A DNA stretch of 64,000 nucleotides from Porphyromonas sp. GTDB lineage: Bacteria; Bacteroidota; Bacteroidia; Bacteroidales; Porphyromonadaceae. Location of the stretch: contig JAXFND010000002.1 of assembly GCA_034181285.1 (NCBI GenBank), positions 104,379 to 168,378 of the forward strand, in the 5' to 3' direction. The notes beneath the pieces were generated by a model. The model did no database searches. It was not told the origin of the DNA and saw only the letters and a program-made list of their open reading frames with translations. Shown piece by piece: positions 4,898-63,055 of the stretch. Numbering within the stretch: position 1 is the stretch's first letter; the number at the start of each line of letters is the position of its first letter. A program made the translations under genes and the position numbers.

Positions 4898-5050
4898 ACT
4901 TTTCCTCTGAGCTATTTCCCTTACTGATCCGTATACCACCTTTATTCATCACACAAGTGCAGGGCTTTTGGTACATTTGCCCAGACACCTCAAAATTCAG
5001 GCTGGAGATTAAGGCCGGGATACAGTGGTTCAAAACTTATACCAAAGGAT

Positions 5051-5983
5051 ATGCAACAGAATAATAGACCGGCTCTTCTGATATTGGCAGCCGGCATGGG
5101 AAGTCGCTACGGGGGGCTTAAACAACTTGACGGGATAGGGCCAAATGGAGAGACCATAATGGACTATTCCGTCTATGATGCCATCCAAGCCGGATTCGGG
5201 CAAGTGGTGTTTGTGATACGTCACAGTTTTGAGAAAGAATTTAGGGAGAAGATCCTCGCCAAGTATGAGAGTCTAATCCCCACAAGCGTTGTGTTTCAAG
5301 AAACGGAAAAACTACCTGATGGCTACACTTGTCCTGAAAGGCGGGAGAAGCCTTGGGGCACAGGACATGCTGTACAAATGGGGGCAGAAGTAATAGATGT
5401 TCCATTTGCTGTAATCAATGCGGACGACTTTTATGGACGTCACAGTTTTGAGGTGCTGGCAGATGAACTTAGATCGGTATGGGGACGGAGTGGCCTCTAC
5501 TCCATGGTTGGGTTCGAATTAGGGAGGACCTTGAGTGAGAGCGGAGCCGTGTCTCGTGGCGTTTGCTCTACGAATTCGAACGGAGATCTGATGACAGTAG
5601 TAGAGCACACTGGCATAGAACAGAAAAAAGGGGTAATCGGATGTCCTGATCCAACCAACCCTATCAAACATAAAGATCTGAGAGCCGACACCATTGTGTC
5701 TATGAATATGTGGGGATTCACTCCGGACTATTTCGCACAAAGTGAATTGCTTTGGAAAGATTTTTTGGACCATCATATCCACGAACCTGAGAGCGAATTC
5801 TATATCCCCTATGTGGTAAGTCGACTCATAGAAAACAGGAAAGCATCCGTAAAAGTCCTTCATTCCGACGCCCAATGGTTTGGTGTGACTTATGCAGCCG
5901 ATCGCCCGATGGTACAATCCAGACTCCATGAAATGTGTGGAGAACAAACTTATCCGAATAATTTATTTTCAACTACGTTATAA
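5051..5983 (+). CDS. Sugar-phosphate nucleotidyltransferase family protein
   Basis: N-terminal LILAAGMGSRYGGLKQL nucleotide-binding signature. Substrate not determinable. Confidence 0.6.
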   Translation: MQQNNRPALLILAAGMGSRYGGLKQLDGIGPNGETIMDYSVYDAIQAGFGQVVFVIRHSFEKEFREKILAKYESLIPTSVVFQETEKLPDGYTCPERREKPWGTGHAVQMGAEVIDVPFAVINADDFYGRHSFEVLADELRSVWGRSGLYSMVGFELGRTLSESGAVSRGVCSTNSNGDLMTVVEHTGIEQKKGVIGCPDPTNPIKHKDLRADTIVSMNMWGFTPDYFAQSELLWKDFLDHHIHEPESEFYIPYVVSRLIENRKASVKVLHSDAQWFGVTYAADRPMVQSRLHEMCGEQTYPNNLFSTTL

Positions 5984-49423: not shown

Positions 49424-49556
49424 TTCCTTGACTGGGGTTTATCAGCTTTCTTATCAGTATGTAAATCTGCAACGATAGCAAACTGCTAAGAAGTGGAGCA
49501 ACGAAACGCTGCTTTTGCACAAGGGATATATCTCAACTCGAAAGGAATGTTTGCAT

Positions 49557-52355
49557 ATGAAAGATTACAACTTTGCCGAGATAGAATCTCGGATTCAGGG
49601 CTACTGGCAGAGCCATCAAGTCTACAAGGTCTCTGAGGATAGTACGAAGCAGCCATACTACGTTCTCGATATGTTTCCCTACCCCTCCGGAGCCGGATTA
49701 CACGTGGGGCATCCGCTCGGTTACATAGCCAGCGACATTGTCGCGAGATACAAGCGACATCGAGGCTTCAATGTGCTGCATCCCATGGGATTCGACTCTT
49801 TCGGTTTACCTGCCGAGCAATATGCTATTCAGACTGGACAACATCCCGAAAAGACAACGAGAGACAATGTAGCCCGCTATCGCGAACAACTTGATAAGAT
49901 AGGATTCAGCTACGACTGGGATCGAGAGATACGCACTTCGGATCCCGAATACTACCGCTGGACTCAGTGGTGCTTCATCAAACTATTTGAATCCTATTAC
50001 GACACAACTCAACGAAAAGCAAGGCCCATATCTGACCTCATCCAACACTTTGAGATAAGAGGAACCGATGGGATCACAGCCGTGGTGAGTGAAGAGCTGC
50101 ATTTCACAGCTGATGCATGGAAAAGCATGAGCCTCAAGGAACAGTCTAATGTATTGATGAATTATAGGTTAGCTTACCAAGGCGATAGTTTGGTGAATTG
50201 GTGTCCTGCATTGGGTACTGTTCTGGCAAATGACGAGGTAAGCGAAGGCCTCAGTGTACGTGGAGGGCACCCGGTAGAGCAGCGCAAAATGCGCCAATGG
50301 TGTCTAAGGGTATCGGCCTATGCTGAGCGTCTACTTGATGATCTTGAAACTCTTGATTGGACCCCGGCCCTGAAAGAAATGCAGCGCAATTGGATTGGGC
50401 GATCGGAAGGAGCCGAATTAAACTTCCATGTGGACGGGGCCGATCTGGAATTTACGGTCTTCACAACCCGTGCTGACACGGTCTATGGAGTTTCCTTTGT
50501 TGTTTTGGCTCCCGAGAGCGAACTGGTTGAGCTGGTTACTCGCCCGAGGCAACAGGAGGATGTAGCTAACTATCTTGAGGCAACAAAGAAGCGAACGGAA
50601 CGCGAACGCATTGCCGACAAGAGAGTGAGTGGCGTATTCACTGGCTCTTACGCAGTCAACCCGATTAGTGGAACAAAAGTCCCCATCTGGATCAGTGACT
50701 ATGTACTAGCCGGGTATGGGACAGGGGCCATCATGGCCGTACCAGCACATGATAGCCGAGATTTTTCCTTCGCTAAAAAATTTGACTTGCCCATCATCCA
50801 AGTAGTGGTACCAGAAGGAGAAAAAGCCTCCGATCCCTCTGCATGGACAGATGCCATCGATAGCAAATCCGGCTCTATGATCAATTCGGATTCTCTCAAT
50901 GGGCTATCAGTATCTGATGCCATACAAAAGGCAAAAGAAATTATCTTGGAGAAAAGGATTGGCCGAGTGAAAGTAAACTACCGTCTCCGTGATGCAATCT
51001 TCAGCCGGCAACGCTATTGGGGAGAGCCATTCCCCATTTACTACAAGGATGGGATCCCCTATCCTGTCGAAGAAAGTCTGTTACCTCTCTGCCTGCCAGA
51101 GGTGGACAAATTCCTTCCCACCGAAAACGGAGAGCCGCCCTTGGGAAGGGCGAAAGGTTGGCATACAGCAGATGGTTATCCCTTTGAACTAAGTACTATG
51201 CCAGGGTTTGCAGGAAGCAGTGCCTACTATCTGCGATACATGGATCCTCGAAATAAAAAGACGCTGGTTGGAGCAGAAGCAAATAGCTACTGGAAGCATG
51301 TCGATCTCTATATCGGGGGGACGGAGCATGCCACAGGTCACCTCATCTACAGCCGTTTTTGGAATAAATTCCTGTATGACTTGGGCATTGTTTGTGAAGC
51401 CGAACCATTCCGCAAATTAGTCAATCAAGGCATGATTCAAGGGCGATCCAGTTTCGTGTATCGTGTCAAAGACACCAACAAATTTGTTAGCTTCAATCTG
51501 AAAGATCAATACGAGGTTAGCCCCATACATGTGGATATAAGCCTGGTCAAAAACGATGTGTTGGATACTGAGGCGTTTAAGCAGTGGAGACCTGATTTTG
51601 CTTCAGCAGAATTTATTTTGGAAGACGGTAAATATGTCTGTGGGTGGGCTGTAGAAAAGATGAGCAAGTCGATGTTCAATGTCATTAATCCGGATGATAT
51701 CATCGAGCGATATGGTGCCGATACACTACGTATGTACGAGATGTTTCTCGGACCACTCGAGCAAAGCAAACCCTGGGATACCAACGGCATTGATGGTGTG
51801 CATCGTTTCTTGAAAAAATTCTGGGCACTCTATTGCGATGAAAATGGTCTACGCGTGGACGACTCTAAGCCAACGGTCGACGAGTTGAAGCTCCTACACA
51901 AACTCATCAAGAAAGTAGGAGAAGATATTGAGCAGTTTTCTTTCAACACCTCGGTACCGGCATTCATGATCACAGTGACAGAGCTCGGCAAACTGGGTTG
52001 CCGTAGCGTGGAGATCCTACGCCCAATGCTAATTCTACTATCTCCGTTTGCACCTCATATCGCAGAAGAGCTGTGGCAAGCTACAGCCCCTGAGAGCGGG
52101 GGGGAACAACCGAATAGTATTGTGGACGCCCATTGGCCCGTACTCGACGAATCATTGCTGGTAGAAAAAACGATCTGTTATCCGGTAAGTTTCAACGGGA
52201 AAGTTCGATTCAACATTGACTTGGATGCCAACCTTACAAAGGAACAGATCGAAGCAGCTGCGCTGACCTCTCCCAATGCGACCAAGTGGCTTGATAGTAA
52301 ATCTCCGAAGAAAGTAATCGTTGTACCAGGTCGCATCATCAACATTGTCATTTGA
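49557..52355 (+). CDS. leuS: Leucine--tRNA ligase
   Basis: HVGHPLGY (HIGH) and KMSKS motifs. Start moved to [10 protein letters not shown]. Confidence 0.95.
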
Positions 52356-52386
52356 CCAATCATAAAATATCTAATCTCACATCGCT

Positions 52387-53382
52387 ATGACAGCAACTTC
52401 TACTCCTATCGTGACCAAGAAAGATTCGATTCAGACGGTCCTACGAGATCTCTTATTCATGTTCATGGGTGTCGCTGCCTATACTTTTGGTTGGACAGCT
52501 TTCATCCTATCGCAAGACGTAACTTCCGGAGGACTGGCCGGTATCACCACAATCATCCAAATCGCTACCAACATACCGGCAACAATCCCTTACAACATCA
52601 TTAACGTTGGGTTGCTGGTTCTCTCTCTTATCTTTCTGGGATGGAAGTTCTCCCTCAAGACAGTTCTCGGTGTAGGGATGTTGGCTTTCACCATACCTGT
52701 GGGACAAGCCCTCTTCACCCCGACCGATACCGCCCAGGGGTTGCAGATCTACCAAAATTTGCCCGACTTCGTTACCAGCACGATTCCTCATGTAGGCCCA
52801 ATGCTCACTAACGAACCTTTCGTGGCCCTTTTCATTGGTTCTATTTTCTGTGGGATAGGATTGGGATTCGTATTCTCTGTTAACGGTAGTACAGGGGGGA
52901 CAGACGTTGTCGTAGCAATCATCAATAAGTACCGAAACATCTCTTTGGGGCGTGCAATGATCATGGTCGATACCGTTATCATTGTCACTGGCTGTATCGT
53001 GAGCCACTACTTCGGCCCCCAATATTCTTGGAGCGTGGCTATCGGCAAACTAGCATTCTCTGTTGTTGAAATATTGGTCGTAGCACAAACCCTAGACTTC
53101 TACATGAATAGCAATCGTCAGTCTGTTCAATTCTTGATCTTTAGCCTCAAATATGAGGAGATCAACGAGGCTATCACCAAGCGACTGCAACGGGGCTGTA
53201 CAATACTGGAAGCTCAAGGAGGATACAGTCGCCAACCAGCTAAAGTTTTGATGGTAGTAGCACGGAAAAATATGTCTGTACCTATTCACAGAATTGTGCG
53301 CGAGATTGATCCAAAAGCCTTCGTATCCGAAGCTCGGGTTCGGGGTGTGTATGGAGAGGGATTTGATGCTCTAAACAAATAA
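52387..53382 (+). CDS. YitT-family membrane protein (DUF2179-type C-terminal domain)
   Basis: Five or six TM helices plus a soluble C-terminal domain ..ILEAQGGYS....VVARKN...V. Confidence 0.65.
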   Translation: MTATSTPIVTKKDSIQTVLRDLLFMFMGVAAYTFGWTAFILSQDVTSGGLAGITTIIQIATNIPATIPYNIINVGLLVLSLIFLGWKFSLKTVLGVGMLAFTIPVGQALFTPTDTAQGLQIYQNLPDFVTSTIPHVGPMLTNEPFVALFIGSIFCGIGLGFVFSVNGSTGGTDVVVAIINKYRNISLGRAMIMVDTVIIVTGCIVSHYFGPQYSWSVAIGKLAFSVVEILVVAQTLDFYMNSNRQSVQFLIFSLKYEEINEAITKRLQRGCTILEAQGGYSRQPAKVLMVVARKNMSVPIHRIVREIDPKAFVSEARVRGVYGEGFDALNK

Positions 53383-53411
53383 GATCGGCCCAAACAAGAA
53401 GGTAGCTCTTG

Positions 53412-53470
53412 ATCGAGAGGCGACCATCTCACAGCCATTGAATATGGGAGATGGTCGCCTCTCGATTTTA
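53412..53470 (+). terminator. Rho-independent terminator
   Basis: 19-bp perfect stem ATCGAGAGGCGACCATCTC/GAGATGGTCGCCTCTCGAT, then TTTTA. Confidence 0.7.
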
Positions 53471-53670
53471 GGCTCTGCCAGGGGGTAGCTTTCACGGGAA
53501 GTAATAAGGAACAAAGAACAGGGGTGTAGTAGAGAATTACGGCGAGGGTTCTAGATCCTCAGTAAAAGCCACAGAAATGCACGAATTTGCATCTGCTGCC
53601 ATCACCCTAAAGGCTATCTTGTTCGATTAGCTCTTCGGAAAACTCCTCTTGTCTCATCTTGGGAAAGATG

Positions 53671-53678
53671 TACCTTTG
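53671..53678 (+). promoter_or_regulatory. -7 promoter box (TACCTTTG) for the rhomboid operon
   Basis: Exact TAnnTTTG about 95 nt upstream of the ATG at 53774. Confidence 0.45.
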
Positions 53679-53773
53679 CTTGCGGGTGCGAAGCGGGTTC
53701 CCAAGGAAGGATCTCGCATAAGCGTCCCCTTTGTCGGATATGTGGTGCACACAATTCAAGCAATCAGAATCAT

Positions 53774-54499
53774 ATGAACAGTAGATTTTACTCCAATATC
53801 AGCAACCTTGTACCCCCCATCACGAAGCATCTGATTTTGATCAATATTATGATGTGGATTGCCTCCATTGTAATGTCCCGAGTGGGGGTTGATTTAGTGG
53901 ATATTTTGGGTCTTCATTATGTGGAGGCACCCAAATTCTACCTGTTTCAATTGGCAACAAACATGTTTCTTCACAGCACAGATAGTGTCTCTCATCTCTT
54001 TTTCAATATGTTCTCTTTGTGGATGTTTGGGAGAGCCATTGAGCAATATTGGGGAGGCAGTCGATTTCTACTTTTCTACTTAGTTTGCGGTGTATCCGCC
54101 TCCCTGCTGCAAGAATTAGTTTGGTACTTCGAATGCAGGAGCTTTCCGGAAATAATTTCGGTGATAAACCACTATGGTTTAGAGGAAATTCCCCGAGCAG
54201 AATTTCTGAACGGGATCTTAGCTGTAGGGGCATCGGGGGCTGTTTTCGGGTTATTGCTCGCTTTCGGCATGTTGTTTCCCAATGCCAGTATTTACCTCTT
54301 CTTCATCCCTGTTCCTATCAAAGCGAAATACTTTGTCGTAGGTTATGGACTTTTGGAACTGTTCTTTGGAATTCGGAGTGCCATGCCCGATAGTTCGGAC
54401 AGTGTAGCTCACTTCGCACATCTTGGAGGCATGATTGGTGGTTTGTTGTTGATCCTCATTTGGAGACGGAAAGGAAAGATCGATGGCCCGTTCGTTTGA
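53774..54499 (+). CDS. Rhomboid-family intramembrane serine protease
   Basis: GASGAVFGLL (GxSG) and AHLGGMIGG catalytic His region. Confidence 0.75.
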   Translation: MNSRFYSNISNLVPPITKHLILINIMMWIASIVMSRVGVDLVDILGLHYVEAPKFYLFQLATNMFLHSTDSVSHLFFNMFSLWMFGRAIEQYWGGSRFLLFYLVCGVSASLLQELVWYFECRSFPEIISVINHYGLEEIPRAEFLNGILAVGASGAVFGLLLAFGMLFPNASIYLFFIPVPIKAKYFVVGYGLLELFFGIRSAMPDSSDSVAHFAHLGGMIGGLLLILIWRRKGKIDGPFV

Positions 54500-55304
54500 T
54501 CGTCACTACCGAGTCTGGTCCCTACTCGATAGGATCAGATATACCCCTTTTGCCATCGTAGCTCTTCTCATCCTGCTTACCTTAGTCCTCTTCCCCGTTG
54601 GCCTAAACATGGGGTTCAATCGCATTGGAGAATCACTAGGATTCTTGCCAGATATCTATTCTCTGGAGTATAAACAGTGGGGGATATTCACCTACATGTG
54701 GATCCACAACAGCCCGTGGCACTTGATTGTGAATGTCTCATTACTCTATCCTCTTGCCCAAGTTTTTGTACGCAGATACAGTAACCGATTCTTCTGGATC
54801 AGCTTCATTGGGGGAGGTATTGCTGGTGGGGCAATCTATACTCTTTGCTACACACTGCTTCGTACGGGACTGAAAACAAGTTTTCTTCCTTTGCCTCTCT
54901 TAGGGTCATCAGCAGCGATCCTTTGTATTTTCGCCATACTATCCTTCGGAGGCATATCCATTTCTGTACAGTTACCCGTTTGGGGGAAGTTGCAAATAAG
55001 AAGTATCGGTTACATCGTTGCGGGGTTAATTTTTCTGGAATTTGTGGGAAGTACTACGGGGATATTATCCAATCATTTGGGGTCTGCATCGGCTCATTCG
55101 GGGGGGATGTTAGCCGGGTACCTGATAGCTTGGTTCGACAAACGAAATAGGCGAATATCGGAACGGGGAAAAGCCATCCAAACCCAGTTCCAAACAGAGA
55201 GACAAGCCATATTGAACAAAATTCGACAGTCTGGATACAGCAGCCTTAACTCATCGGAAAAAGAGATCCTACTAAATCGAAACAGAGATGTCCAAAAGAG
55301 GTAA
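54483..55304 (+). CDS. Rhomboid-family protein (second paralog)
   Basis: GSSAAILCIF and AHSGGMLAGY motifs. Overlaps the upstream gene. Confidence 0.65.
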   Translation: MARSFDRHYRVWSLLDRIRYTPFAIVALLILLTLVLFPVGLNMGFNRIGESLGFLPDIYSLEYKQWGIFTYMWIHNSPWHLIVNVSLLYPLAQVFVRRYSNRFFWISFIGGGIAGGAIYTLCYTLLRTGLKTSFLPLPLLGSSAAILCIFAILSFGGISISVQLPVWGKLQIRSIGYIVAGLIFLEFVGSTTGILSNHLGSASAHSGGMLAGYLIAWFDKRNRRISERGKAIQTQFQTERQAILNKIRQSGYSSLNSSEKEILLNRNRDVQKR

Positions 55305-56409
55305 AAAAACAAATACTACCGCCAAGCTGCTGTCCAAGGCCGGAGGGCGTGTGATGCTTTTTATCTGCATAGGAATCAATGTTTTCTATTTGCTGGCAGT
55401 GCTCAGCCCCTATTTGTCCGGGAGGTTGGTACTGCCTTCTTTGTTGGGATTAGCCTTCCCGCTCACCCTCTTATTAGAATTATTCGTTTTAGCCTATTGG
55501 CTGTTATCTCGCAAATGGGTTTGGGTGACAATAAATCTATTGTTGTTGCTATCAGCCTACGATGCTGTGCACACTATTTTCCCCATGAACTCGCCCCGCA
55601 CAGTTCCCGTTCAGGACTCAATCACCATTGTTTCCTACAATGTGAGTGCTTTCGGTTTTGTTGAACATACCCGTTCAACGCCCAATCCCATTTTAAAGTA
55701 CCTGAAAGAGACTGGTGCCGACATTGTCTGCCTTCAAGAGTCTCGCTTCTCAACATTTAACTTGAGCGAGATGAAATCCTATCTCCCGCTGTATAAGTAC
55801 ACTCATTCAGATCATGCACAACCGGATCGAGGATCACGTCTAACGATCCTATCCAAATGGCCTATACAAGAGCAGGAACGCATCGCCTATCCCTCCCGTT
55901 TCAATGGGTCAATAGCTTATCAAATAATGGTGAGAGGACGTAACATACTGGTAATTAATAACCATCTGGAGAGCTTTAAACTTTCAGAACAAGATCAAAA
56001 AAGCTACTCTCGCTTAGCTAAGCAAGGAGAGGCTAAATTGTTATCCTATTCGGTAGCTCGAAAGTTAATTCCAGCTTTCGCAACTAGGGCGGCCCAAGCC
56101 GAACGTGTAGCTAAGTACGTGGCAGAGCACAAGGACTTACCCGTGATCTCTTGTGGAGACTTTAATGACACACCTCTCTCTTATACTCGCCACTGCATGA
56201 GTCAAGGACTAAAGGACGCCTTCAAAGAAAGTGGCTACGGCTTAGGCTTATCATTTCATTCGTCTTACAGTAAATACATTCGTGCAAGGTTAGATTATAT
56301 CCTTTACTCTTCTGCATTTGAATCAGCTCGGTGCAAAGTTGACAACTCAATCAAAATCAGCGACCACTACCCTATTGTCGCGACATTGTATTTCCCCGAA
56401 CACCATTGA
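55288..56409 (+). CDS. Membrane-anchored endonuclease/exonuclease/phosphatase (EEP) family protein
   Basis: N-terminal TM helices. EEP motifs SYNV, DIVCLQE, GDFNDTP, SDHYPI. Confidence 0.7.
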   Translation: MSKRGKKTNTTAKLLSKAGGRVMLFICIGINVFYLLAVLSPYLSGRLVLPSLLGLAFPLTLLLELFVLAYWLLSRKWVWVTINLLLLLSAYDAVHTIFPMNSPRTVPVQDSITIVSYNVSAFGFVEHTRSTPNPILKYLKETGADIVCLQESRFSTFNLSEMKSYLPLYKYTHSDHAQPDRGSRLTILSKWPIQEQERIAYPSRFNGSIAYQIMVRGRNILVINNHLESFKLSEQDQKSYSRLAKQGEAKLLSYSVARKLIPAFATRAAQAERVAKYVAEHKDLPVISCGDFNDTPLSYTRHCMSQGLKDAFKESGYGLGLSFHSSYSKYIRARLDYILYSSAFESARCKVDNSIKISDHYPIVATLYFPEHH

Positions 56410-56708
56410 GTGTAACTTTCCCTCCAAGGACTTAAGATAAAAGGGCCTCCACAAATTGGATTGCATACTCAGTCGCTCTCATTCTCGAATTGGAATTGGC
56501 GTATGGCAAAATGGAGTTCATAGAGGTATTCTTGTTCTACATGCCGAGGGTTCGCTCTTGCCATGCCTTATTTTCACATGGCGTTCTAATCGAGTAACTG
56601 ACAACCTTCAACTAAAACAGAGACTGACTCTCCAAAACCAGAGGATACACCAGCCTTCAAGAAAGCCTTCCCTTTCCATCTGAAAAGGGCACGGGAAAGA
56701 GATTTAGA

Positions 56709-56780
56709 CACAACGCGTCAGAAAAGTTGCTCCTTCACGTCAAAAATTTAGCTTCTTCCCCATACCGTACTTTTCCTTTC
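56709..56780 (+). repeat. Periodic ACGT-core minisatellite (locus E, upstream of cas4)
   Basis: CACAACGCGTCAGAAAAGTTGC | TCCTTCACGTCAAAAATTTAGC | TTCTTCCCCATACCGTACTTTTC. Confidence 0.45.
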
Positions 56781-56935
56781 CATCAAAGCAAGTATCAGAT
56801 AACACAACCAGTCCTCCAAGCAACGCCCTAAATCCGACACAAAAACCCATGTCAGTTTTTACTAAGACTATATTTAGTCCATATTTATTTTGAGTGGTAT
56901 TTAATTTTAATTTTGTTTTTACAATTTATTTCGTA

Positions 56936-56943
56936 TACATTTG
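56936..56943 (+). promoter_or_regulatory. -7 promoter box (TACATTTG) for cas4-cas1-cas2
   Basis: Exact TAnnTTTG about 29 nt upstream of the cas4 ATG, preceded by a very AT-rich stretch. Confidence 0.5.
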
Positions 56944-56971
56944 CGACCAAAGAGATAAACACAAAACGAAA

Positions 56972-57517
56972 ATGGATAAGCCAAACAAAATACACCCACC
57001 CTCCATCACGAGAATAACAGGTGTTCATTTCAACTATTACCAAGTATGTCACAGAAAACTTTGGCTCATGTCTTCCGGAATAACCATGGAACATAACTCA
57101 GATCTGGTACTCGAGGGAAAATTAATTCACGCATCAGCCTACCCTCAACGTCCCGACAGATATGAAGAACTTGAAATAGACGGCATTAAAGTGGACTTTT
57201 ACGATCCCCTAAATAAGGTCGTACACGAAATAAAAAAATCCAATGTAATCTCACAGGCACATCGCCTTCAATTACTCTACTACCTCTATGTCCTAGATCG
57301 AAATGGTATCCATGGAGTAACAGGAATATTGGAGTATCCGATACTCAGAAGACGGGAAGAGGTATTTCTGGCCGATGCAGACAAAAGGTATATTGAAGAG
57401 ACCGAACAAAAAATCCGCCAAATCATTCATCAAAAGGAGTGCCCGCAAAAAATCAACTCCAAAATTTGCAAGAAATGTAGCTACTACGAATTCTGTTTTT
57501 CAGGTGAAGAATTATGA
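56972..57517 (+). CDS. cas4: CRISPR-associated exonuclease Cas4
   Basis: N-terminal Cys (YYQVCHRKLW) plus C-terminal CPQKINSKICKKCSYYEFC Fe-S cysteines. Start moved to MDKPNK. Confidence 0.8.
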   Translation: MDKPNKIHPPSITRITGVHFNYYQVCHRKLWLMSSGITMEHNSDLVLEGKLIHASAYPQRPDRYEELEIDGIKVDFYDPLNKVVHEIKKSNVISQAHRLQLLYYLYVLDRNGIHGVTGILEYPILRRREEVFLADADKRYIEETEQKIRQIIHQKECPQKINSKICKKCSYYEFCFSGEEL

Positions 57518-58533
57518 AAAAGACATACTATCTATTTAACTCCGGAGAGTTAGTTAGAAAAGACAACTCCCTCTGCTTTATCCCTTCTAATTCCGAGGAT
57601 AGTAAATGCGACGAATCCAATAGGCAAGTTCGCCACATTCCAGTTGAAGCCGTCAGTGACTTCTATGTTTTTGGTACTCTTAAAGCGAATAGTAGCCTGT
57701 ACAACTTCCTCGGCAAAAACGACATCGCTGTCCATTTCTTTGACTATTACGAAAACTACACCGGATCATTTATGCCTCGAGATTTTCTACTCTCGGGCAA
57801 AATGCTCCTATCTCAAACAGCTGCCTACAGAAACAAAAAGAAGCGAGTACAATTGGCGAGAAAGTTTGTATCCGGAGCTGCGTTCAACATGCAAAAGAAC
57901 TTGGCTTATTACAGCAATCGAGGAAAGGATACAGTCCCCATGATCGAACTGATCAATAAATACTCATCTCGCCTAGATGAAACCTCCTCTATAGAAAGTC
58001 TCATGGGAACAGAAGGTAATATTAGACAGGCCTACTATGATGCTTTCAACTTGATCATAGATCCGTTTGTGATGGGAACTCGGAGTAAACAACCTCCACT
58101 GAATGAGGTAAATGCACTCATCTCTTTCGGAAATATGATCTGCTATACCGTATGCCTTAAGGCTATACATCAAACGCAACTTAACCCTACAATAAGTTTC
58201 CTTCACACTCCTGGGGAGAGAAGATATTCCCTTTGTCTAGATATTGCTGAAATATTCAAGCCCATACTTGTGGATCGCACAATATTCAGAACTGTAAATA
58301 AGCGAATCATACAAGCCAAACATTTTGAAAAGCATTTGAATCGTTGTGTCCTGACTCCCTCTGGCAAAAAACTGTTTGTACAAGCTTTTGAGCAAAGACT
58401 CGATGAAACAATCCAACACAGAAAGCTAGGACGTTCAGTGAGCTACAAACATTTGGTTAAACTTGAATGCTACAAGATAGCAAAAGATATACTTGGCATC
58501 GAAGAGTACCTCCCTTTTAAAATGTATTGGTAA
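57514..58533 (+). CDS. cas1: CRISPR-associated integrase Cas1
   Basis: 339 aa with ATGA overlap with cas4. Typical YLFNSGELVRKDNSL start and conserved FLHTPGERRYSLCLDIAEIFKP region. Confidence 0.9.
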   Translation: MKKTYYLFNSGELVRKDNSLCFIPSNSEDSKCDESNRQVRHIPVEAVSDFYVFGTLKANSSLYNFLGKNDIAVHFFDYYENYTGSFMPRDFLLSGKMLLSQTAAYRNKKKRVQLARKFVSGAAFNMQKNLAYYSNRGKDTVPMIELINKYSSRLDETSSIESLMGTEGNIRQAYYDAFNLIIDPFVMGTRSKQPPLNEVNALISFGNMICYTVCLKAIHQTQLNPTISFLHTPGERRYSLCLDIAEIFKPILVDRTIFRTVNKRIIQAKHFEKHLNRCVLTPSGKKLFVQAFEQRLDETIQHRKLGRSVSYKHLVKLECYKIAKDILGIEEYLPFKMYW

Positions 58534-58796
58534 TGTACGTTATCTTAGTATATGACATTGGGCAAAAGCGTGTAGGTAAAATGCTCAAACTGTGCAGAAA
58601 ATATCTAAACTGGATTCAGAACTCAGTATTTGAAGGTGAAATAACCCCGAGTAAATTGTTGGAGTTAAAGTGTATTGCTTCAGAAATACTGAAAAAAGAG
58701 GAAGATAGCTTGATCATATTTTCCTCTAGACAAAATCGTTGGCTAGAAAAAGAGATCATCGGAAAAGAATTAGGCAAAGTCGATATATTTTTGTGA
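58527..58796 (+). CDS. cas2: CRISPR-associated endoribonuclease Cas2
   Basis: 89 aa with MYVILVYDI...NWIQNSVFEG pattern. Overlaps the cas1 stop. Confidence 0.85.
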   Translation: MVMYVILVYDIGQKRVGKMLKLCRKYLNWIQNSVFEGEITPSKLLELKCIASEILKKEEDSLIIFSSRQNRWLEKEIIGKELGKVDIFL

Positions 58797-59024
58797 CCCA
58801 CGACTGTAGTGATGTCTAATATATTACCTCGTCGCACCCTCTTTCGGGTGCCAGTGAGTGATACTTTTTTATGCAAAGCGATCTTTGAAATACTTGGTAC
58901 ACAGAGATATAGTAAGGTCGTCGTTACCTCCCAATTTTAGTTGAACCGGATATCGACAACTTTTCGAAGACAAAAAGGACTTACCAACTTCCCCTAACTC
59001 CCTTTCTGACAAGGAGAAAAACCG

Positions 59025-59032
59025 TACCTTTG
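59025..59032 (+). promoter_or_regulatory. CRISPR leader -7 promoter box (TACCTTTG)
   Basis: Exact TAnnTTTG ending 5 nt before the first repeat. Confidence 0.55.
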
Positions 59033-59037
59033 CACGG

Positions 59038-61127
59038 GTCTCAATCGAACTACTCTAGAATTTAAAGAATCGACGCGGACGCGGCTCTCTTCGCTCTCGA
59101 CAAGTCTCAATCGAACTACTCTAGAATTTAAAGGAAGTCGCAACGACGGGGGTGTCGTCCGTGTTCCGGTCTCAATCGAACTACTCTAGAATTTAAAGTT
59201 GCAGCAGCTCCATGGAGACCTTGCGGAGCTTGATTGTCTCAATCGAACTACTCTAGAATTTAAAGAACTTGTCCTTGATCCAATCTGCGTCGATCTCAAA
59301 GTCTCAATCGAACTACTCTAGAATTTAAAGTTGATTGATCGGCTAACGCTTTCGGAGAATAAGTCCGTCTCAATCGAACTACTCTAGAATTTAAAGCACT
59401 TCGCGATAACAGCGATCGCGGCGTCCTTTTTCGTCTCAATCGAACTACTCTAGAATTTAAAGGAAATGCTCGACATTCATACTCCAAGTGGAAATTTTGT
59501 CTCAATCGAACTACTCTAGAATTTAAAGCATATCCGAGTTTGTTGTCGGTAGCGTCTACAAGACAGTCTCAATCGAACTACTCTAGAATTTAAAGTCCGA
59601 ACTCGTAAAAGTGTGCGTACGTTGGTTGTCTTGTCTCAATCGAACTACTCTAGAATTTAAAGTGGGAAGAGTCTAAGTCCGATATTTGGGTGAGATCTGT
59701 CTCAATCGAACTACTCTAGAATTTAAAGTCTCAATCGCCATCCGGAAAGCGTTATACTGCGTCTTGTCTCAATCGAACTACTCTAGAATTTAAAGCTAGC
59801 TCGGTTGTGTCGAATGGTAGACGCCATGCGGTGTCTCAATCGAACTACTCTAGAATTTAAAGGTTTCATCTTTCTTATTGCCTTATCGCTGTCTGTTAGT
59901 CTCAATCGAACTACTCTAGAATTTAAAGCTTGGCAAGAGCTATTAGTCTTTATTCTTCGTATGCGTCTCAATCGAACTACTCTAGAATTTAAAGACTATT
60001 AGCCAAATGACGCTCCAGCCTGGTCCGCATGGTCTCAATCGAACTACTCTAGAATTTAAAGATATCCATCACGAATACTTGGTGCCGGTGCGTCAATAGT
60101 CTCAATCGAACTACTCTAGAATTTAAAGATCTCTTTCACCGCTTCGGCTCCGAGATCATCGCCCAGTCTCAATCGAACTACTCTAGAATTTAAAGTATTG
60201 GACGATTTAGCGAGGCCGCGGGCCCACATGAGTCTCAATCGAACTACTCTAGAATTTAAAGTTCTCCTTATCTCTCACTACAAATATACGTCACTTTTGT
60301 CTCAATCGAACTACTCTAGAATTTAAAGAGTATCACTGCGGTTGGTACATGATGGGAGCGGATGGTGTCTCAATCGAACTACTCTAGAATTTAAAGCGAA
60401 TGAGGCTCTCTCAAATCCTTCTGTCGCAGCAGTAGTCTCAATCGAACTACTCTAGAATTTAAAGACCATCGATCACCAAGCGACTGAGCTCATCTACATA
60501 GTCTCAATCGAACTACTCTAGAATTTAAAGGTGATGCTTCTAAGTGTCTCATATTCATTTTTAACCGGTCTCAATCGAACTACTCTAGAATTTAAAGATC
60601 TTCGAGAAGTTAATGAACATATTCGAAAAGTTAAGTCTCAATCGAACTACTCTAGAATTTAAAGATCACAAGCTCGAAAATAAGTTTTTTATCTGCTTTG
60701 GGTCTCAATCGAACTACTCTAGAATTTAAAGATCACAAGCTCGAAAATAAGTTTTTTATCTGCTTTGGGTCTCAATCGAACTACTCTAGAATTTAAAGAG
60801 ACAATGGACGTGTCTTGGCAACATTCTCGTAGTCGTCTCAATCGAACTACTCTAGAATTTAAAGTCAGGAGCACTTTCTGCAATTGCAAGGCTCAGGAGT
60901 GGTCTCAATCGAACTACTCTAGAATTTAAAGTCTACATTTGCGACCACAAGAGGCTCGCCGATCGGCGTCTCAATCGAACTACTCTAGAATTTAAAGTCG
61001 CTTATCGCTTTGATATACTCCATGTCGCGGTCGTCTCAATCGAACTACTATAGAATTTAAAGGTGGTCGCGATGACGGGGGTGTCGTCCGTGTTCCGGTC
61101 TCAATCGAACTACTCTAGAATTTAAAG
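59038..61127 (+). CRISPR. CRISPR array of 32 x 30-nt repeats (GTCTCAATCGAACTACTCTAGAATTTAAAG) and 31 spacers of 35-38 nt
   Basis: Repeat starts counted by hand from 59038 to 61098, period 65-68 nt. One variant repeat at 61033 (C18 to A). Confidence 0.97.
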
Positions 61128-61202
61128 AAAAAACAATCGTGGTAACTAACTTGCCCCCCCACTCGGGGGGCTCTCAAAATCACACAAGAGACATCCGACA
61201 CA

Positions 61203-61589
61203 ATGCGATATACAATAACTAACATACGAGAGCAAAAAGGAGGCAAAGCTGTACTACAGCTCACAGACGAGCGCGGCGAAGAATACGCAATCAATACGAC
61301 AGTCGAAAGTCTAAAAGTACTCGCCAACATCTTGCAAAAAACGACACTAAAGCATGTCAATATCGACAGTCTTCAGCTGCGATTGTGGCGTGCGGCTCGA
61401 CTGATCAAGCGCAAAAGATTGCTGTTAGACATACCACCACGCAAGACAAGCATCAGTCATCAACGCTTGTACTTGCTCGAGAGCGGCAAAAGTACAACAG
61501 CCAACACCGCGCTCACGGTCGCTATCGCGACTGGCATACCGCTCTACTTAGAGTCTCCTGACATCAGTGATCGAGTAGAGTACATATAA
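61203..61589 (+). CDS. Small protein with C-terminal XRE-like HTH (phage regulator-like)
   Basis: ISHQRLYLLESGKSTTANTALTVAIATGIPLY resembles an XRE HTH. The N-terminal ~50 aa are not recognisable. Confidence 0.4.
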   Translation: MRYTITNIREQKGGKAVLQLTDERGEEYAINTTVESLKVLANILQKTTLKHVNIDSLQLRLWRAARLIKRKRLLLDIPPRKTSISHQRLYLLESGKSTTANTALTVAIATGIPLYLESPDISDRVEYI

Positions 61590-61872
61590 TATATATGTAT
61601 AACAAATCTATAAAAAGAGTGACGGCACATCGAGAGATCGCCGCCACTCAACAACACAAAAACAAAACAAAAACTATAAAGAGCTAAACATCATCAGCTC
61701 TTTATATGTCAATCCTCTCGAGCGAGAACCGACGCGCTCGACGCGCTCCGCCCACGAAAGGCTACCACAAGAAAAAAACACTATCCGAAGTAAAGAAAGA
61801 ACTCAAATCGGGGTGGTGGCTTTATCTGGATGTAAGAATTATGAACTTTTCACTCTCAAAAAATAATGAAAT

Positions 61873-62196
61873 ATGGAACAAGTAGAAAAACTAAAAGAGC
61901 TTCAAAAGCAAGAACAAAAAATCGAAGCAAGTAAAAGCACAGCTTGGGAGAGCACTTTGCGTGTGGTTGCATGGCTCTCAATTATTGCGGCGTTGATTAG
62001 TATTGTTGCCGCAGCCGGAGAAAGTAATCCAGCAATACTTATAGGTGGTGCTGTTGCGTTTTTAAGCGGTATCTCTCTTCATATTCTGTGTAACATCTCA
62101 ACTCACTTGTCAGACATAAAGGAAATTCTTAGTAAGGATTATGCGCTTAAGAAGATCCTTGAATTTGGCTCTCAAGAAGAACAAACAGAAAAATAA
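61873..62196 (+). CDS. Small two-TM membrane protein, unknown function
   Basis: Coiled N-terminus and two hydrophobic helices (VVAWLSIIAALISIVAAAG, ILIGGAVAFLSGISLHILC). Confidence 0.35.
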   Translation: MEQVEKLKELQKQEQKIEASKSTAWESTLRVVAWLSIIAALISIVAAAGESNPAILIGGAVAFLSGISLHILCNISTHLSDIKEILSKDYALKKILEFGSQEEQTEK

Positions 62197-62242
62197 GTAT
62201 CAAACACTTGTACAATCAAAAAATACTCACTACCTTCGTAGT

Positions 62243-62449
62243 GCTTAGAAAATGGTAGTATTCTACTTCGTAGGAGCAAGCGGTTAAGTTGCTCAATGAT
62301 ACATTGGGCTTTTTTGTTGCCCAAACAAAATATCGGCGGTTGCCTATTACGTGAAAATTTTGCTCTTCGGAGTAGACCATTTTCTAAGCAGCGTAATATG
62401 GCGACCGCTTTTTTGTTCGTCTAAAAGTCATTAAATGCTTAGAAAATGG
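62243..62449 (+). promoter_or_regulatory. Operator-like 13-nt motif GCTTAGAAAATGG, three copies (two direct, one inverted)
   Basis: Copies at 62243-62255 (+), 62377-62389 (inverted) and 62437-62449 (+). The last overlaps the Rha ATG. Confidence 0.4.
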
Positions 62450-62923
62450 CAGGTTTAGTAATTCAAAGCCCACAGGGGCGAGACGTAACGACAAGTCTAA
62501 TCGTTGCGGAAGTGTTCGGCAAAGACCACCGCAAAGTATGTAGAGACATCGAAAGTCTCTCTTGCTCTGAAAGTTTTAGGGTGGCCAATTTTGGCCAGGC
62601 TACTTTTGAGAACCAAAAAAACAGGGCAAATGCACAAGATGTATGAGATGACCAAAGACGGATTCAGTTTCTTGGTTATGGGCTATACGGGCAAGAAAGC
62701 TGGTGAGTTCAAGGAAATGTTCATCAACGAGTTCAACAAACGAGAAATGATGTTGAAAAGCGATGATTACATCTTGGCACGCTCACAAGAAATTCTGCAC
62801 AACCGCTTACAGTTGGCTGAAAAACAACTGCAAGCTGCACGGGCTACCATCACGAGCCAAAGCGAGCAACTCAAAGCCCAAGCCCCAAAGGTTGAGTCTC
62901 AATCGAACTACTCTAGAATTTAA
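62446..62923 (+). pseudogene. Rha-family phage regulatory/antirepressor gene, frameshifted in an A7 tract and 3'-truncated by a CRISPR repeat
   Basis: VTTSLIVAEVFGKDHRKVCRDIESL in frame 1 continues as MYEMTKDGFSFLVMGYTGKKAGEFKEMFINEFN in frame +1. The last 9 codons are repeat sequence. Confidence 0.65.
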
Positions 62924-63055
62924 ATACCGCAGCGACTGCCGCCTTTCCTTTGCCGCTCCCGTCTCAATCGAACTACTCTAGAATTTAAATGTCGTATGCA
63001 CACCTGCTCTTTCCACTGATCTGCCGTCTCAATCGAACTATTCTAGTATCTCCAC
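62896..63055 (+). CRISPR. Trailer CRISPR remnant of 3 repeats (two ending ..AAAT, one degenerate terminal) and 2 spacers
   Basis: Repeats at 62896, 62961 and 63026 with 35-nt spacers. The last repeat is GTCTCAATCGAACTATTCTAGTATCTCCAC. Confidence 0.85.

Follow-up and report, generated by a model that had tools for sequence, protein, structure and literature searches.

How can a piece of phage DNA long enough to hold whole genes come to occupy a single spacer position in an array of short palindromic repeats that are clustered and regularly interspaced (CRISPR)? Strict periodicity is usually taken for granted in such arrays, with Cas1-Cas2 acquisition and deletion between repeats as the only sources of change. 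The question is raised by an array in a metagenome-assembled genome (MAG) of Porphyromonas sp., analysed here in a 64,000-nt stretch of DNA (the window), in which 1,768 bp of phage-derived sequence stand in the place of the 32nd spacer. The answer favoured here, put forward with middling confidence, is that this insert is the scar of homologous recombination between two spacers of the array and phage protospacers.

A search for exact or near-exact copies (at most one mismatch) of the repeat, GTCTCAATCGAACTACTCTAGAATTTAAAG, returned 34 copies in the window, where none was expected from shuffled sequences. The first 32 (R1 to R32) all end in ..AAAG, with one internal C>A change in R31, and the last two, R33 and R34, which start at 62896 and 62961, both end in ..AAAT. 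The array has 33 normal spacers of 35-38 nt, 36 nt being the length of 11 of the 33, whereas the 32nd spacer position holds 1,768 nt and falls outside this range. The insert begins with AAAAAACAATCG at its left end and reads ..CCCCAAAGGTTGA where it meets R33, and both flanking repeats are complete 30-mers. An earlier sequence-only reading of the locus had placed a phage-like block of this length exactly between two intact repeats (61127/62896) and had remarked that the ..AAAG repeats lie upstream of it and the ..AAAT repeats downstream. Both statements are borne out, the first by the repeat search and by phage homology, and the boundary of the repeat polymorphism coincides with the position of the insert.

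The phage origin of the insert follows from two comparisons. A contig of a Porphyromonas phage (L088) runs collinear with positions 61839-62451 (86% identity), and in both L088 and L089 a gene for a small protein with two transmembrane (TM) segments natively precedes an antirepressor gene; together these identify the insert as phage DNA. The TM protein, of 107 aa, had been recognised in the sequence-only reading and is upheld by hydropathy, and homologues of 80-90% identity recur in Porphyromonas phages, with an antirepressor gene following closely. The gene that follows it had been read as a Rha-type antirepressor. Its N-terminal Phage_pRha domain is indeed matched in Pfam (E 8e-10 and 7e-14). 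The domain is not in a single continuous frame: compared with L007 and L100, the A-run at 62614-62620 holds one A more, which breaks the domain into two frames, and the earlier assignment had missed this. The gene ends in ..QLKAQAPKVE, and the ANT/KilAC domain starts right there in homologues, so that the cut formerly placed near the start of KilAC falls exactly at the domain boundary. This motif before ANT/KilAC is invariant in homologues with Rha, Bro-N or KilA-N heads. With Phage_pRha not in one frame and the C-terminal ANT/KilAC domain absent, the remnant lacks what characterises a Rha-type antirepressor and, judging from its reading frames, is dead and has no function. Being both frameshifted and truncated, it marks the insert as decaying cargo. 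The last 75 nt of the insert form a linker conserved among such antirepressor genes, with 83-97% nucleotide identity to several phages. For seven phage loci (L003, L007, L088, L089, L100, L103 and L104), homology runs as far as 62897, the second nucleotide of the repeat, and breaks off inside what is in each phage an intact gene. At this junction the phages read GGTTGAGTAC, whereas the window reads GGTTGA followed directly by GTCTCAAT, the beginning of the repeat; the GT common to the repeat start and the phages is probably due to chance.

No integrase, transposase, terminal (inverted) repeat or target-site duplication was found in the insert by Pfam and PHROG searches and sequence checks. This bears on the idea that a prophage or transposable element integrated site-specifically and was afterwards reduced by internal deletion. 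Prophages of Streptococcus pyogenes that use the CRISPR repeat as attB do exist: PhiAP1.1, a whole inducible prophage, is integrated by its integrase at an 8-bp core inside a type II-A repeat, which is split in the process (10.1101/2020.10.09.333658). As at the present locus, phage DNA then lies within a CRISPR array and separates the leader promoter from the spacers further downstream. It may also be counted in favour of this idea that the antirepressor module of phage005a lies ~2 kb from an integrase. In contrast to PhiAP1.1, the present insert is a dead 1.77-kb fragment with no integrase, it occupies the position of a spacer between two complete repeats, and its right junction cuts through a gene. 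With both repeats intact and no machinery, integration of the PhiAP1.1 type and insertion of a transposon or insertion sequence were rejected, and a site-specific origin is considered very improbable.

The insert's right end bears a further signature, a CCA followed by exactly 36 nt up to R33. This is the geometry of a protospacer adjacent motif (PAM) with a normal-length protospacer abutting the repeat, as spacer-protospacer recombination would leave it, and it gives the right end the look of an ordinary PAM-selected former spacer, here called spB. The motif agrees with the 5' CCW PAM measured in eight of nine protospacers of the P. gulae and P. loveana systems. All six P. gulae spacers that match P. 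gingivalis phages have CCT or CCA directly 5' in the cas1-to-array orientation, and two of three P. loveana protospacers have CCW, the third being a diverged variant with mismatches at the PAM-proximal end. The PAM was taken from these two species because no target was found for any spacer of this organism. The 5' PAMs in the cas1-to-array orientation of the sister systems also fix the reading direction of the array, and the P. gulae repeat is related to that of the window and lies in the same orientation. Both the PAM and the protospacer of the putative spB are conserved in phage005a. By chance, a CCW would stand 35-38 nt from an arbitrary end at 5% of insert positions and at 7-13% of those in related phage loci; the geometry is suggestive, not decisive.

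The best-supported model, spacer-protospacer recombination, was not among the three hypotheses of the sequence-only reading. According to this model the array would have started as ..R-spA-R-(..)-spB-R(T)-sp33.., with spA and spB derived from the same strand of one phage, ~1.7 kb apart. The older spacer, spB, would have targeted the conserved antirepressor linker, and the newer spA may have been acquired by priming from spB. Same-strand spacer pairs are expected after primed adaptation, a process established for type I systems. Phage DNA could then have entered either by a double crossover with both spacers or by integration of the phage at spB, after which the DNA between spA and its protospacer would have been lost. 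The repeat between spA and spB, together with any spacers there, would be replaced by the phage segment between the two protospacers, and the product, R32-[spA...phage...CCA-spB]-R33, would be the structure observed. In such a product spB would have lost its upstream repeat and would give no CRISPR RNA (crRNA) against its PAM-flanked copy, while spA would be flanked by a repeat and not by a PAM; the product may have survived because, for these two reasons, it would be unable to self-target. If several units had been deleted between spA and spB, the switch from ..AAAG to ..AAAT would fall at the insert without coincidence.

This model is supported by the nature of the putative spB target, a conserved 75-nt block in many phages, by the sharp right junction with no mobile-element features in the insert, and by same-register variant spacers (spacers 2 and 31 of the window, sp2/sp31, and spacers 7 and 10, sp7/sp10, of L004, a metagenome contig of another strain), which are expected from PAM-guided acquisition. 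Several points weigh against it. The spacer spA is purely postulated, and the native phage left flank was not found, the left 700 nt of the insert having no known relative. No sister array was found to hold spA or spB among its ordinary spacers: a look-up by Cas1 led to L004 only, which ends inside a different spacer set, a 65-aa open reading frame (ORF) of the trailer had no match on record, and the route through rpsA gave only partial proteins of at most 82% identity. Arms of 36 nt offer little homology for RecA-type recombination, the match of PAM plus 36 nt has a chance probability of 5-13%, and the whole locus comes from one MAG. The use of CCW is carried over from homologous systems, whose Cas4 and Cas1 are ~70% and ~80% identical to those of the window, and ~12 of 30 positions differ between the repeat and that of P. 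gulae. Searches for protospacers of the window and L004 spacers gave none. The window array had only a chance Streptococcus match among phages and no match among plasmids, the L004 array had no match among phages, conserved spacer cores had none in IMG/VR, a degenerate sp7/sp10 pattern of L004 had none in the JGI metagenomes, and all spacers against all collected related loci gave only 13-15-nt matches.

The coincidence of the repeat polymorphism with the insert would have a causal explanation if the insert were a giant spacer. At a time when spacers 33-34 made up the whole array, Cas1-Cas2(-Cas4) might have inserted 1.77 kb of linear phage DNA at its leader-proximal repeat, a possibility that the sequence-only reading had also listed; a slip of 1 nt at the spacer-side cut, during the second-site attack, would have produced the ..AAAG variant that all later repeats copied. 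Like a canonical Cas1-Cas2 spacer, the insert is derived from phage and lies flush with intact repeats on both sides; it differs from one in measuring 1,768 nt instead of 35-38 nt and in holding whole genes. In favour of such an event, L004 has identical Cas1, leader and repeat and entirely different leader-proximal spacers, which indicates that the adaptation module is active. These strain differences, with the leader and cas genes at the left and a degenerate repeat at the right, also show that the array grows leftward and that the insert lies two spacers from its old end. We know of no precedent for kilobase-long Cas1-Cas2 substrates in vivo. The ruler mechanism likewise argues against acquisition of this kind, which does not predict that a PAM should lie at exactly 36 nt from the right end; that PAM would have to be assigned to the 5-13% chance given above. 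Both the integration of such a fragment and the slip that would accompany it are therefore regarded as unlikely; if true, they would constitute natural evidence for casposase-like insertion at kilobase scale by a CRISPR integrase in vivo.

The same polymorphism could be explained by crossovers within repeats. The source of the insert, with or without a mini-array of ..AAAT repeats, would then be a phage or mobile element in which one or more such repeats were already present; alternatively, two arrays would have fused, as the sequence-only reading had also considered. Phage-borne mini-arrays are known in general. In addition, P. gingivalis phage019b matches a P. loveana spacer together with 16 of 20 bases of the repeat that follows. 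In that case a stretch of the P. loveana array (L008 12148-12204) corresponds to PP754931.1 17092-17149 (L096 401-458), the spacer match has a CCT PAM, of the 20 nt after the protospacer 16 agree with the first bases of the CRISPR repeat, and the site lies at the start of an 'acr candidate' gene. It may be a footprint of DNA transfer from array to phage, or repeat mimicry, and exchange in the array-to-phage direction may thus occur in this genus. For the present insert, the sequence-only reading had likewise proposed a phage or mobile element with its own repeat, and this proposal found no support. The comparison with Porphyromonas phages that it called for did yield homologous loci, and no adjacent repeat-like sequence: in ten related phage loci (including L003, L007, L088, L089 and L100-L104) the best match to the repeat is 10 nt. 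Exact searches for the repeat in 2.9 million IMG/VR contigs and in the JGI metagenomes were likewise negative, although diverged copies would escape them. Moreover, a phage repeat would have to have been fused inside a truncated antirepressor gene. No leader-like sequence was found before R33 when looked for, which speaks against an array fusion, and a second leader at this position was rejected. Recombination through repeats is accordingly held to be unlikely, if slightly less so than a giant spacer.

As the window comes from a MAG, it should also be asked whether the insert belongs in this array at all. In the Logan per-run assemblies, a contig of SRR21357810 consists of exactly 29 nt of repeat, the 1,768-nt insert and 30 nt of repeat, and a contig of SRR21357813 (L002) starts in the repeat at the left and stops at ~62824, so that it covers the left junction only. 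The junctions between repeat and insert therefore exist in reads of more than one run. The stop in L002 falls exactly where the conserved antirepressor linker begins; such a break implies a branch in the assembly graph, and hence a second element with an identical linker in the SRR21357813 sample. With k=31, these contigs end in the repeats and neighbouring spacers are not visible in them, so that placement of the insert within this array depends on the MAG assembly. A repeat-insert-repeat unit that is real in the community might have been threaded into the wrong array by the assembler, or the contig might be chimeric; the origin of the window, the reach of the Logan contigs, which verify adjacency to a repeat and not the spacers beyond, and the second element behind the L002 break are all in keeping with this. 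On the other side, the spacers are unique, and any assembly with k>66 would resolve the path. The insert is identical, frameshift included, in at least two runs, always has repeat ends and was seen in no other context, and no free phage copy of its 128-aa or 107-aa genes is on record in the databases searched. An assembly artefact is thus thought improbable, somewhat more so than either a giant spacer or crossovers in repeats.

Features of the array and of the insert, with their positions in the window
Feature	Position	Strand	Remarks
cas4	56894..57517	+	likely true start near 56972, giving 181 aa; Pfam Cas_Cas4 E 5e-53; NCBIfam cas4
cas1	57514..58533	+	Pfam Cas_Cas1 E 5.5e-85
cas2	58527..58796	+	Pfam CRISPR_Cas2 E 2e-22
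Leader, 241 nt	58797..59037	+	same sequence in contig L004 of another strain
Repeats R1-R32 and spacers 1-31 (35-38 nt)	59038..61127	+	repeat search
Phage-derived insert, 1,768 bp, in a single spacer position	61128..62895	+	identical in Logan contigs L001 and L002
Putative former spacer spA, AAAAAACAATCGTGGTAACTAACTTGCCCCCCCACT	61128..61163	+	first ~36 nt of the insert; postulated, as required by the recombination model
G/C hairpin GCCCCCC-CACTC-GGGGGGC	61153..61171	.	near the left end; no + strand T-run after it
128-aa ORF	61203..61589	+	near-orphan; possible degenerate helix-turn-helix (HTH), residues 80-114
59-aa ORF	61706..61885	+	probably a remnant; 61750-61812 84% identical to L007 7279-7340
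107-aa protein with two TM segments	61873..62196	+	hydrophobic residues 29-49 and 54-74 (hydropathy)
Terminator-like hairpin (62291-62309) and T-run TTTTTTGTTG	62291..62319	+	T-run extends to 62319
Rha-type antirepressor pseudogene, N-terminal Phage_pRha	62446..62895	+	Pfam and PHROG matches
Conserved linker (..SQSEQLKAQAPKVE), 75 nt	62821..62895	+	many Porphyromonas phages have it in antirepressor genes of the Rha, Bro-N and KilA-N types
CCA	62857..62859	+	matches the 5'-CCW PAM of homologous systems
Putative former spacer spB, AAGCGAGCAACTCAAAGCCCAAGCCCCAAAGGTTGA	62860..62895	+	36 nt between the PAM and R33
R33 (..AAAT), spacer 33, R34 (..AAAT), spacer 34	62896..63025	+	oldest array units
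Degenerate terminal repeat, 3'-truncated	63026..63046	+	followed by the trailer and the rpsA terminator

The left part of the insert is less readily assigned. The 128-aa ORF, described in the sequence-only reading as an XRE-like HTH protein, can be so called only tentatively: its best indication, HTH_3, has E=0.12 and 12.8 bits against a cut-off of 23, its AlphaFold model has a predicted local distance difference test score of 44, and no Pfam or PHROG match was obtained at E<=0.01. A word-sharing search of 5.8 billion proteins returned only the protein itself, an exhaustive HMMER search gave two remote relatives without genomic context, and nothing was found in IMG/VR. Neither this protein nor the 107-aa protein had a match in INPHARED (tblastn). 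Both ORFs are intact and in sense orientation with respect to the array, and their expression is possible. Overlooked in the sequence-only reading were the position of the insertion, which is at the array's old end, near the trailer, and a terminator-like hairpin within the insert. Read-through from the array would probably end at ~62310, before the Rha remnant and R33, in which case spacers 33-34 would be silent. Transcription could nevertheless yield an RNA in which the R32 handle leads into spA and then a long tail.

The adaptation genes beside the array have counterparts elsewhere in the genus. Cas1 is 81% identical to that of P. gulae, its best match among the GTDB representatives, from which the species itself is absent, and 79% to that of P. 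loveana; Cas4 is 69-72% identical to the Cas4 proteins of P. loveana, P. gulae and P. crevioricanis. In P. gulae (L010) the genes are arranged as cas6-cas5p-csp2-csp1-cas3-cas4-cas1-cas2, the type I 'PGING' (I-B-like) arrangement. The effector genes cas6-cas5p-csp2-csp1-cas3 are not beside cas4-cas1-cas2 in the window, where a leucyl-tRNA synthetase, a membrane protein, two rhomboid-like ORFs and an Exo_endo_phos protein lie upstream of cas4 (49515-58796); they may be elsewhere in the genome or may have been lost. A 22-nt sequence is imperfectly duplicated in tandem at 56716-56758, in non-coding DNA that separates cas4 from the Exo_endo_phos gene. Other Porphyromonas loci do not share the trailer flank, and gaps in the P. 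gulae array, considered as further inserts, were rejected as runs of N.

Several spacers show relationships of their own. Spacers 2 (59134-59168) and 31 (61063-61097), 29 units apart, are same-register variants of one protospacer with 24 identical 3' bases, and their reverse complement translates as RNTDDTPV(I/V)AT. They share a 15-nt exact match (~0.3 expected by chance) with antirepressor genes of L003, L103 and L104, ~60 nt upstream of the conserved linker, which is only a hint that spacer 31, the neighbour of the insert, may target the same gene family. Spacers 7 (5019-5054) and 10 (5218-5252) of L004 are likewise same-register variants of one coding protospacer (..VEDYEGDVWE..), a pattern that suggests repeated re-acquisition at a PAM-defined site during phage drift. 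Spacers 25 (60665-60701) and 26 (60732-60768) are identical, so that one repeat-spacer unit must have been duplicated. The start of spacer 11 (59729-59737), TCTCAATCG, equals repeat positions 2-10 and forms, with the preceding G, a 10-nt partial copy of the repeat.

Recombination between spacers and phages has been encountered before in staphylococci, reportedly as laboratory, phage-side products in a type III-A host, where transducing particles carried CRISPR loci. The exchange took place between targeting spacers and phage genomes (Varble 2019, cited in 10.1101/2020.10.09.333658). As in the model favoured for the present insert, short spacer-phage homology reportedly drove the joining of phage and array DNA. 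In contrast to that phage-side case, the Porphyromonas insertion is stable and on the array side, apparently involves two spacers and belongs to a natural type I (PGING/I-B-like) locus. A closer structural counterpart is CRISPR locus F of Sulfolobus solfataricus, in which an 899-bp fragment resembling plasmid pNOB8 is described as 'inserted between two repeats' (Lillestøl et al. 2009, as cited in PMC4390879). The two loci have in common long mobile-element DNA between regular, intact repeats, with no transposon features or other mobile-element machinery. As described in the cited passages, locus F is archaeal, leaderless and inactive and its fragment is plasmid-derived, whereas the present locus is bacterial, with a phage-derived insert beside an active adaptation module; those passages contain no junction analysis or PAM signature, while here a PAM plus 36 nt is present at one end. 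The claim in the sequence-only reading that no standard category exists for the arrangement was, in the light of this account, overstated (PMC4390879). The insert and one repeat amount to 1,798 nt, or 27.1 average repeat-spacer units; a value so near an integer has a ~16% chance and is probably a coincidence, although a like remark on unit multiples was made for the 899-bp Sulfolobus insert (Garrett et al.). The arrangement is most likely of a known but rarely documented kind, found here in a bacterium, with phage-derived DNA and with a junction signature that points to a mechanism, and not a new kind of system.

With regard to annotation, CRISPR finders split loci such as this one into two arrays and label the cargo as ordinary genes. 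The practical consequence is modest, as the case is a single decaying insertion in one MAG. If the recombination model is true, spacer-protospacer recombination, hitherto seen mainly in laboratory staphylococci, would here have left its trace in nature and on the array side. Immune memories would then act as landing pads through which phage genes are imported into the chromosome, and memories that recombine in this manner could silence older spacers and erase the spacers involved.

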